64,000 bases of DNA, taken from assembly GCA_965652925.1 (NCBI GenBank), contig CBFGXL010000001.1:23821-87820 (forward strand), in the 5' to 3' direction. Each line of letters opens with the position of its first letter. Position 1 is the first letter of the stretch. Below the pieces are notes generated by a model. That model was not told the origin of the DNA. It did no database searches and saw nothing but the letters and a program-made list of their open reading frames with translations. Source of the stretch: an uncultured bacterium (GTDB taxonomy: Bacteria; Patescibacteriota; Minisyncoccia; Phycocordibacterales; UBA918). Below, piece after piece: positions 59,510 through 60,415 of the stretch. The position numbers were made by a program, and so were the translations under genes.

Positions 59510-60415
59510 CTACCTTCTGCTATTGTTGGCAACAAGCATAGTGACCGCCTTTGTCACAATAGGTAGAATATCTTCGTAAAAATTGAGATCAAGTATCTCA
59601 GCGACTTTGAACCATTTTGCATCATCAAGACCTCCTTTTTTCTCCAAGGTCAACTCCGTGTATCCACTGCGGGCAAGAAAATACGTCACTTGCTTGCGCA
59701 CCTTACCGAGCTCAGGATGCGATGCCACGTATTCGTTTTTGCCAAGTTCACCTTCGAGTACTACATCGACGCCAATCTCTTCTTTGATCTCCCGCATTGC
59801 GCCAGCCTCAACAGTTTCGCCTTCCTCTATCTTCCCCTTCGAGAGGGTCCAATGCCCAAAGATATCGTGGACTAATGCCAAGTAGATGTCACCATCAGAC
59901 TCAGAATACACCACTGCCCCAGAAAGACGCTGTATAGGCATTTTTTCAAATGGGATGTCCTTTCGCGGTCGCTTGCCCGTCTCATCCTTGCCCGGCTCAC
60001 CTATTTCCTTATAGACAGCTCCGAGTACGCCATTAACGAACCGGCTACTGTTCTCTCCTCCAAACTGCTTTGCAAGTTCTATTGCCTCGTTGATAGCCAC
60101 CTTTGCAGGCACTTCTTTTCGGTCAGCAAACAAAAGTTCATACAAACCTAAACGTAAAATATTTCTATCAACTGGCGAGATACGATCAATAGGCCACTCA
60201 GGAGCAGCCTTTTCGATTACCTGATCAAGTTCAGGTTGTTTTCCCAGTACTCCATCAAGGAGTTTTTCTATGAAGGGAGCGTCAGTCTTGTTGGGTGCAA
60301 ACTCTGAGATGTTGCGTCCTAACACTTCGGGTACATTTTTCTTTTCTATATCATTCAAATCCCACTCAAAGAGTGTCTGAAGAACGATTGACCTGCTTAA
60401 ATGTCGATTTGCCAT
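59510..60415 (-). CDS. nusB: NusB-like N-terminal domain fused to a C-terminal NUDIX hydrolase domain
   Basis: aa 1-135: NusB pattern (RSIVLQTLFEWDL...ISPVDRNILRLGLYELLF...VPAKVAINEAIELAKQFGGENSSRFVNGVLG). aa 200-225: a perfect Nudix box GKIEEGETVEAGAMREIKEEIGV. One continuous 301-aa ORF. Confidence 0.75.
   Translation of the reverse strand: MANRHLSRSIVLQTLFEWDLNDIEKKNVPEVLGRNISEFAPNKTDAPFIEKLLDGVLGKQPELDQVIEKAAPEWPIDRISPVDRNILRLGLYELLFADRKEVPAKVAINEAIELAKQFGGENSSRFVNGVLGAVYKEIGEPGKDETGKRPRKDIPFEKMPIQRLSGAVVYSESDGDIYLALVHDIFGHWTLSKGKIEEGETVEAGAMREIKEEIGVDVVLEGELGKNEYVASHPELGKVRKQVTYFLARSGYTELTLEKKGGLDDAKWFKVAEILDLNFYEDILPIVTKAVTMLVANNSRR

Follow-up and report, generated by a model that had tools for sequence, protein, structure and literature searches.

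A NusB–Nudix fusion protein of Patescibacteria with a frequently degenerate catalytic box and a conserved predicted nucleotide pocket

The window considered here is a stretch of 64,000 nucleotides (nt) from an uncultured member of the Patescibacteriota (GenBank contig CBFGXL010000001.1, positions 23,821 to 87,820). At 59510..60415 on its minus strand, it carries a gene that joins the transcription factor NusB and a C-terminal domain of the Nudix superfamily in one polypeptide of 301 amino acids (aa). The fusion is real, widespread and apparently undescribed, and it is assembled from known domains. Most members of the family lack the catalytic residues of Nudix hydrolases but retain a predicted nucleotide pocket, and to judge from their sequences binding, not hydrolysis, seems to be the conserved role of the domain. 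The model that we tentatively place first, at somewhat less than an even chance, is that the NusB-tethered pocket binds an adenine-polyphosphate ligand, which would be hydrolysed in this organism and merely bound in most of its relatives.

NusB is a universal core transcription factor, normally single-domain and about 140 aa long. It is the subunit of the transcription antitermination complex that binds boxA RNA and S10 (NusE). The candidate phyla radiation has reduced genomes and an unusual, poorly understood ribosome biology, and a conserved accessory domain on NusB in hundreds of species points to lineage-specific control of rRNA transcription and processing.

Architecture, identity and distribution of the fusion

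The open reading frame (ORF) runs without interruption from an ATG start to a stop codon at 59510-59512, and Pfam finds both domains in its product: NusB (PF01029) at aa 7-136 (E=1.9e-37, 129 bits against a cutoff of 23.1) and NUDIX (PF00293) at aa 167-281 (E=4.8e-16, 59.4 bits against a cutoff of 21.1). On the minus strand, the NusB domain, with an Arg-rich N-terminus (MANRHLSRS), comprises aa 1-138 (60002..60415), the interdomain linker aa 139-165 (59921..60001), and the Nudix-fold domain aa 166-296 (59528..59920). The Nudix box GKIEEGETVEAGAMREIKEEIGV at aa 194-216 (59768..59836, minus strand) is an exact fit to GX5EX7REUXEEXGU, with all seven key residues present (G194, E200, R208, E209, E212, E213 and G215). 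Two AlphaFold2 models were made of the full protein, the second from a deeper alignment. In this second model the overall predicted local distance difference test score (pLDDT) is 88.4, and both domains score about 90 or above. The NusB part (pLDDT about 90) forms seven helices, at residues 4-20, 25-39, 46-58, 60-70, 81-96, 104-119 and 121-138. The core of the linker is disordered: the pLDDT of aa 141-151 stays under 50 in each of the two models and is about 41 in the better one. The predicted template modelling scores (pTM) are 0.52 and 0.63, and no fixed interface between NusB and Nudix is confidently predicted in either model. The predicted picture is one of two well-folded domains joined by a flexible tether of about 25 residues. 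The preliminary description of this gene had read NusB and Nudix in a single polypeptide and a canonical Nudix box; the domain search and the box itself bear out both. The model supports the Nudix fold of the C-terminal domain, with Foldseek template modelling scores (TMt) of up to 0.86 to solved Nudix hydrolases.

The NusB half is the genome's nusB orthologue by sequence, fold and position, a conclusion that we hold, together with the domain architecture, with high confidence. Its score with the NCBIfam equivalog model for nusB (TIGR01951, aa 4-137) is 132.5 bits against a cutoff of 88.35, and it aligns over their full length with the solved NusB chains 1tzt, 3r2c and 3d3b, and with entry 6tqn of the complex for antitermination of rRNA transcription (rrnTAC); among these are chains from E. 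coli antitermination complexes. The upstream neighbour is rpmF, which encodes ribosomal protein L32 (60503..60790, minus strand; PF01783, E=2.9e-18; the start codon is uncertain, with a mechanical ORF that reaches as far as 60874). On the downstream side, rnc, the gene for RNase III, follows 43 nt past the stop codon of the fusion (58747..59466, minus strand; PF14622, PF00636 and dsrm). The rpmF and rnc neighbourhood given in the preliminary description is thus confirmed by Pfam for both genes, and the Pfam-checked order in the window, all on the minus strand, is RNase HII, L32, the fusion, RNase III, two pilin-like genes and an SMC-like gene. Among 80 species loci that were compared, rpmF lies upstream of the fusion in 77 and rnc downstream in 78, and the order rnhB-rpmF-fusion-rnc-(pilins)-smc is kept in essentially all. 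The residue counts given below for 80 species refer to a narrow set made up of the window and 79 species loci (65-98% identity).

Among stand-alone NusB proteins, those most similar to the NusB part are P0202 (144 aa) and P0243 (140 aa), with 50-55% identity and the size that the preliminary description had given as normal for NusB. In both cases rpmF immediately precedes the gene, and the next gene begins with an RNase III N-terminus. In position, the fusion is thus orthologous to the stand-alone nusB that fills the rpmF-nusB-rnc slot in sister lineages. Two very divergent fusions, P0249 and P0166, are likewise found between the genes for L32 and RNase III, and tblastn found no second NusB or Nudix gene within the window. 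Compared with stand-alone NusB, with which it shares the equivalog threshold, the seven-helix bundle and the slot, the fusion has about 160 extra C-terminal residues (linker and Nudix). A precedent for linking an RNA-binding module of the NusB fold to an enzyme domain that works on rRNA is RsmB/Sun, a 16S rRNA 5-methylcytosine methyltransferase, and RsmB models of NCBIfam match aa 8-140 weakly. However, the N-terminal domain of RsmB is a NusB paralogue and its enzyme is a methyltransferase, whereas the NusB part of the fusion scores above the nusB equivalog cutoff and sits in the nusB locus. Two other NusB proteins of 245-251 aa (P0262 and P0254) have a C-terminal low-complexity tail of about 100 aa, rich in Ala, Asp, Glu and Thr, where the fusion has Nudix, and NusB thus acquires C-terminal extensions by more than one route.

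The fusion was searched for among 5.8 billion proteins, and the 120 best 90%-identity clusters were examined. They are drawn from NCBI, JGI, ENA and Logan assemblies, show 81-96% identity, measure 297-324 aa (nearly all about 300), and contain both Pfam domains in every case. A scan of GTDB, with one genome per species and hence a species count that is a lower bound, found a relative encoded in at least 540 species representatives, with the labels Kaiserbacteria, Nomurabacteria, Adlerbacteria, Paceibacteria/Paceibacterota, Parcubacteria and "Patescibacteria group". The survey of related genomes suggested earlier thus shows that the fusion recurs. When 1.84 billion representative sequences of clusters at 50% identity were searched exhaustively with HMMER, 159 matched at E<=1e-30, about 50 of them full-length fusion clusters, with identity down to 33%. 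From these clusters, 49 full-length representatives form a broad set, referred to below as the diverse representatives. The current database names of these proteins are "NusB" or "hypothetical", and full-text searches of the literature, including searches for Parcubacteria, turned up no account of a protein that joins NusB to Nudix.

Of the 80 loci compared, 79 encode the fusion as a single unbroken ORF of about 300 aa. The closest locus, L001, is 98% identical to the window and represents essentially the same organism. Only L073 (4989-5899) is split, by a frameshift at about residue 50, inside the NusB part and not at the junction; either the assembly is wrong at this point or the gene is a pseudogene. 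The stretch EIGEPGK, which opens the linker and runs across the domain junction, is invariant in close relatives; over the broad family, the linker is the least conserved segment (mean identity 0.39). An internal translation start at M159-P160 was considered and ruled out, since M159 is conserved in close relatives but not across the broad family. A stand-alone Nudix cluster of 141 aa (P0238) begins exactly at the M159-P160 position. Another stand-alone Nudix protein, of 142 aa (P0252, locus L081), is very similar to the fusion family in its C-terminal half (NEYVAS, GGLDDA, LNFYED), and resembles generic MutT in its N-terminal half and box (GGRIEFGETPERCIVREIKEELGL). A chimeric assembly is one possible explanation for it, and kinship with the donor gene is another; its genomic context, a 695-bp contig that is possibly chimeric, is uninformative and was set aside as evidence.

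Catalytic box and nucleotide pocket of the Nudix domain

By its sequence relationships, the Nudix domain is a member of the superfamily that resembles the hydrolases of dinucleoside polyphosphates (ApnA). A phmmer search of PDB sequences places it nearest to M. tuberculosis Rv2985 / M. smegmatis MutT1, Thermus Ndx1 (an Ap6A hydrolase), Chlamydia CT771 and the Aquifex Ap4A hydrolase. The top Foldseek match is the Aquifex Ap4A hydrolase (3i7u, E=1.9e-10, TMt 0.86), and further top matches are Rv2985 (9cxx, with the PDB title of a Nudix diadenosine polyphosphatase), M. smegmatis MutT1 (5gg5), the C. elegans (1kt9) and human (4ijx) Ap4A hydrolases, Ndx1 (1vc8) and CT771 (4ilq). The asymmetrical ApnA hydrolases (human NUDT2, the C. 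elegans enzyme, Aquifex aq_158, Thermus Ndx1, CT771 and the N-terminal domain of MutT1/Rv2985) are thus the best matches in sequence and fold. They share with the fusion a W-x-x-x-K-G lead-in to the Nudix box, an adenine-stacking Tyr/Phe pair, the Lys/Tyr of the P1 phosphate, and a Y-V-A...K-x-V-x-Y-[FW]-L-A stretch. The fusion differs from them in its lead-in motif (SKGK in place of PKGH), in its NusB partner, and in the loss of catalytic glutamates in most family members.

None of the curated Nudix models of NCBIfam reaches its cutoff with this domain, the best being MutT1 with 42.5 bits against 475, and the domain is therefore not filed as an Ap4A hydrolase, RppH or NudC. The preliminary description had related it to the RNA-decapping enzymes RppH and NudC. 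The common superfamily stands, together with the box and the broad substrate class (nucleoside-polyphosphate-X). A closer relation does not, as the thresholds are far off (29.8 bits against 118 for RppH, NF001936; 29.6 against 158 for NudC, NF001299), and the ApnA hydrolases are structurally closer. A link to RNA decapping therefore exists only at the level of the superfamily. The YtkD model (TIGR02705) is likewise below its cutoff, with 15 bits against 154. A Dcp2-like overall architecture, with a helical regulatory domain followed by Nudix, was also considered; the Foldseek alignment extends over 261 columns, but with a root-mean-square deviation of 12.8 and template modelling scores of 0.32-0.37, and the idea was dropped.

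Intact in the window copy, the box is intact in only 27 of the 80 species of the narrow set when all seven key residues are counted. E213 is kept in all 80, R208 in 79, E200 in 78, G215 in 73 and E212 in 65. G194 is kept in 55 and replaced by Ser in 25, and E209 is kept in only 34, with Ala in 32, Ser in 7 and Lys in 7. The defects take the forms SERAEEG, GERKEEG, GERSDEG, GERASEG, GDREAEG and GEGEDEG. Among the diverse representatives the box is intact in 8 of 49, and position 209 is Glu in 9. The box helix is absent altogether in P0159 and P0182, and in P0240, P0247 and P0249 a K/E-rich low-complexity insert of about 100 aa or more stands in its place. This insert is absent or much shorter in P0269 (268 aa), which belongs to the same subfamily. 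In these last four proteins, which come from AT-rich genomes, Pfam detects NusB alone. Nevertheless, the profile-profile alignment of this P0240-type subfamily still runs end to end, through the C-terminal Nudix strands and helix, and the gene for P0249 (L084 3501-4517) is still found between rpmF and rnc.

Box states were mapped by Fitch parsimony and by a loss-only model on a tree built without the box columns. Defects are scattered over this tree, with at least 11 changes by parsimony and 17 defective clades under the loss-only model. To judge from this distribution, the catalytic box is lost many times independently. The window and L001 have an intact box, but S194/A209 is the state in L007, L033 and L023, which are sister lineages of theirs. 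The changes G194S and E209A (59834-59836 and 59789-59791 in the window) co-occur almost perfectly, as SERAEEG, in species scattered over the tree. This pairing suggests either a coupled loss of one metal site or recombination that spreads one allele. Hydrolysis is abolished by the exchange E58A in NUDT2 and by E50Q in Ndx1. E209A, the commonest change in the family, is the same substitution as the engineered E58A of the human Ap4A hydrolase (4ijx, 1xsa), and E213 aligns to E50 of Ndx1, the E50Q mutant of which was crystallised with ATP bound (1vc9).

Synonymous sites are saturated in nearly all pairs, and amino-acid distance ratios were therefore used instead of the ratio of nonsynonymous to synonymous rates (dN/dS), for which about 9 pairs were usable. 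Relative to NusB, the box evolves 2.9x as fast in box-defective pairs and 1.39x in box-intact pairs. For the rest of the Nudix domain the corresponding values are 1.46x and 1.14x. In the approximately 9 unsaturated pairs, dN/dS is about 0.05 for both domains. The constrained sequence outside the box means that the domain is under selection even where it is no longer a normal Nudix hydrolase.

These data bear on the view that catalysis is the point of the fusion, with NusB bringing an active pyrophosphohydrolase to antitermination or rRNA complexes, where it would remove 5' triphosphates or caps, or degrade an alarmone locally. The canonical box of the window copy is in line with this view, as are the RNase III gene directly downstream and the finding that, where the box is intact, it is under roughly the same constraint as the remainder of the domain. 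Moreover, ApnA-hydrolase relatives such as the NUDT2-type enzymes are described as converting PPP-RNA to P-RNA (PMC8616924). However, only a minority of species have an intact box, even the sister lineages of the window carry the S194/A209 form, and where it has been deleted or replaced by an insert the Nudix domain was retained each time. The unmet RppH and NudC cutoffs also speak against it, and we consider this view unlikely. The coupling of antitermination to hydrolysis that the preliminary description had proposed does not hold as a conserved function of the family. In this particular genome, in contrast, the intact box makes hydrolysis plausible.

The predicted nucleotide pocket has fared differently from the box. 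It was located by aligning the family to human NUDT2, the sequence of which was verified to be identical to 3u53_A. Five positions, which span 59570..59839 on the minus strand, correspond between the two proteins: K193 to K42 of NUDT2, Y229 to Y82, K241 to K89, Y280 to F128, and D282 to E130. In NUDT2 the P1 phosphate is held by K42 and Y82, with K89 in the Plasmodium enzyme, and the adenine is stacked by Y82 and F128, with its amino group hydrogen-bonded by E130 (PMC4734340). Of the 80 species, 79 retain all five predicted pocket positions. Among the 49 diverse representatives, 42 retain four or more, and 36 of the 49 are box-defective yet keep at least four. By conservation, the pocket positions rank 2, 4, 10, 12 and 15 of 131, with a hypergeometric P of 3e-5 that is partly post hoc because the conservation list had been seen before the pocket was mapped; E209 ranks 112.

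The same pattern can be set against the idea that the Nudix fold is a protein-docking scaffold without a nucleotide role, which would make NusB/S10 more stable within the elongation complex, much as SuhB does for NusB/E. In E. coli, NusB/E requires SuhB to be stably integrated into the complex for rRNA antitermination, and SuhB thus offers a precedent for an enzyme-fold subunit in this place (PMC6614801). The likeness, an enzyme-fold protein that acts with NusB/E on boxA-bearing rRNA leaders, is an analogy only, as SuhB is a separate polypeptide with an unrelated inositol-monophosphatase fold. A scaffold would fit well with a catalytic activity that is dispensable across the family, and with the stretches outside the box that are invariant in close relatives (VHDIFGHWTLSKG, GGLDDAKWF and NFYEDILPIVTKA). 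It fits less well with the top-conserved positions of the broad family, which line the nucleotide pocket of ApnA hydrolases and not an obviously new surface, or with a disordered linker and a pTM of 0.63 at best, at which packing against NusB is not confidently predicted. A pure scaffold therefore appears slightly more doubtful to us than a conserved catalytic role.

A proposed nucleotide-binding role

In our preferred model of a nucleotide-binding pocket tethered to NusB, selection on the Nudix domain would act on the adenine/polyphosphate-binding pocket, not on hydrolysis. The tether would place this pocket on the NusB-S10-boxA complex, which travels with RNA polymerase on pre-rRNA leaders. 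The candidate ligands are a free dinucleoside polyphosphate (ApnA) or ATP-like nucleotide on the one hand, and the (p)ppA- or Np4A-capped 5' end of the same nascent transcript on the other. In this genome, the bound ligand would probably also be hydrolysed, by a Mg2+-dependent pyrophosphohydrolase, because no catalytic residue is missing. Most related species would bind it without hydrolysis.

The combination of a degenerate box, a retained pocket and a nucleic-acid-binding partner is the pattern of Nudix sensors, and most orthologues fit it in sequence, but not the window copy with its intact box. Among the known sensors, NrtR, which senses ADP-ribose, and Bacteroides AraR resemble the fusion in having a Nudix fold, often with a degenerate box, and a partner that binds nucleic acid. 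The arrangement is different, with an N-terminal Nudix domain and a DNA-binding winged helix in NrtR and AraR, and a C-terminal Nudix domain and RNA-binding NusB in the fusion. These non-catalytic regulators (3gz8, 5bs6) are significant Foldseek matches, but they rank lower and match the Nudix domain less closely than the ApnA hydrolases do. A more far-reaching version of the nucleotide-binding model is that the Nudix domain serves NusB as a reader of adenine-polyphosphate signals throughout a large patescibacterial clade (Paceibacteria/Parcubacteria), the signal being either Ap4A-type alarmones or the (p)ppA- or Np4A-capped 5' end of nascent pre-rRNA. A filled pocket, whether or not the ligand is turned over, would then modulate the assembly or persistence of the NusB-S10-boxA complex. 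We regard this version as speculative and rather improbable.

Several observations weigh against the nucleotide-binding model or against parts of it. The search for a second nusB covered the window, and a second copy elsewhere in the genome is possible. In certain lineages this slot holds a plain NusB, and the domain is therefore not essential to NusB function. NUDT2 has one more His in contact with phosphate, for which the broad family lacks a generally conserved equivalent; H188 is invariant in close relatives and variable in the broad set. The conserved Tyr, Trp and Lys residues could serve the stability of the fold or another partner. The inactivity of the degenerate forms may also be overstated. 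Some Nudix enzymes tolerate the loss of the RE-glutamate, and members changed only at E209 might therefore retain weak activity. The near-invariance of E200, R208 and E213 in the narrow family hints at residual metal binding.

The plain nusB of sister lineages can be taken further, to the suggestion that the two halves of the fusion are mechanistically uncoupled: the gene of a housekeeping ApnA or NTP hydrolase would have been joined to the 3' end of nusB in a reduced genome, and the hydrolase would act independently of NusB where it is still active and be slowly decaying elsewhere. The flexible tether with no predicted interface is compatible with this suggestion, and so is the existence of heavily degenerate versions. 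Decay should, however, give stop codons and truncations, yet the ORF of about 300 aa is kept in 79 of 80 species, and the single frameshift (L073) is in the NusB part. Box-defective lineages retain a full-length domain, the remainder of which changes at only 1.46x the rate of NusB, with low dN/dS in the few usable pairs. It is therefore improbable that the two halves are uncoupled, and more so than that the domain is a scaffold. Finally, an assembly or sequencing artefact, in which a frameshift error joins two adjacent genes as the preliminary description had cautioned, is practically negligible as an explanation, since hundreds of assemblies, made independently and drawn from four sources of data, contain the same continuous ORF, EIGEPGK is conserved across the junction, and the sole frameshift lies away from it.

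The significance of the fusion depends on which of these readings is correct. If the domain is a reader, it would be a direct physical link from a nucleotide or cap signal to rRNA transcription elongation and processing, and the family would contain a natural series of enzyme-to-sensor conversions inside one orthologous protein. Should 5' ends or Ap4A be what it reads, antitermination would be tied to non-canonical RNA caps and dinucleoside polyphosphates, the biology of which is still poorly understood. If it is merely a tethered housekeeping hydrolase, the fusion would be a modest curiosity of genome reduction. The most interesting aspect is perhaps the erosion from enzyme to binder within one orthologue. 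Intact, point-inactivated, deleted and insertion-disrupted catalytic centres occur in closely related species, side by side with a conserved predicted pocket, and amount to a natural experiment on enzyme versus sensor.

Leader region and other features of the window

The intergenic leader between rpmF and nusB (60416..60502, minus strand) was examined by a terminator scan and by comparison of upstream regions across species. On the minus strand, it contains a terminator-like hairpin at 60473-60486, a -10-like TACACT at 60444-60449, and the conserved motif AGTACATT, of the AGTWCATT class, at 60420-60427. The layout across species is similar, with a GC hairpin, often flanked by ATCCACAAA / TTTGTGGAT, followed by a promoter-like TGnTAYACT (54 of 79 loci), CAGTAG and AGTWCATT. 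AGTWCATT is found in 38 of 79 loci, against 0.2 expected. It ends up 1-9 nt ahead of the ATG, in the usual place of a Shine-Dalgarno sequence, and occurs at chance level elsewhere in the window. Shine-Dalgarno-like motifs are not enriched upstream of the fusion (19 of 79 loci against 19 expected). The leader motif may be a gene-specific regulatory or translation-initiation element.

A boxA-like leader was considered as a sign of Nus autoregulation and rejected, as the core G[CT]TC[TC]TT is present in 5 of 79 loci, against about 1 expected and a shuffle maximum of 5. In the most distant members the leader does look boxA-like, for example AGTTCTTCTTTAACA in L078, but the signal is weak (the same 5 of 79). 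The 64-kb window, which has a GC content of 47.4%, contains no rRNA operon, and no tRNA genes or Rfam families at the gathering threshold were found in it.

Downstream of rnc, the SMC-like gene (54913-57201, minus strand) encodes a protein of 762 aa. A typical bacterial SMC protein is much longer, at about 1,180 aa. The SMC_N match spans both ends of the protein (aa 9-747), and a match to the hinge domain is not reported by Pfam. Of the two pilin-like genes, the one at 58075-58563 has a weak N_methyl motif. The other (57204-58052, minus strand) encodes a protein of 282 aa without a Pfam match, which has a type-IV-pilin-like hydrophobic N-terminus (GFTLIEVMTVVGIIV). Its C-terminal part consists of hexapeptide repeats rich in Tyr, Gly, Ser, Gln and Thr (SGYYGQ, SGYYSQ, TSYYTQ), which are encoded by 18-nt tandem repeats at 57271-57557.

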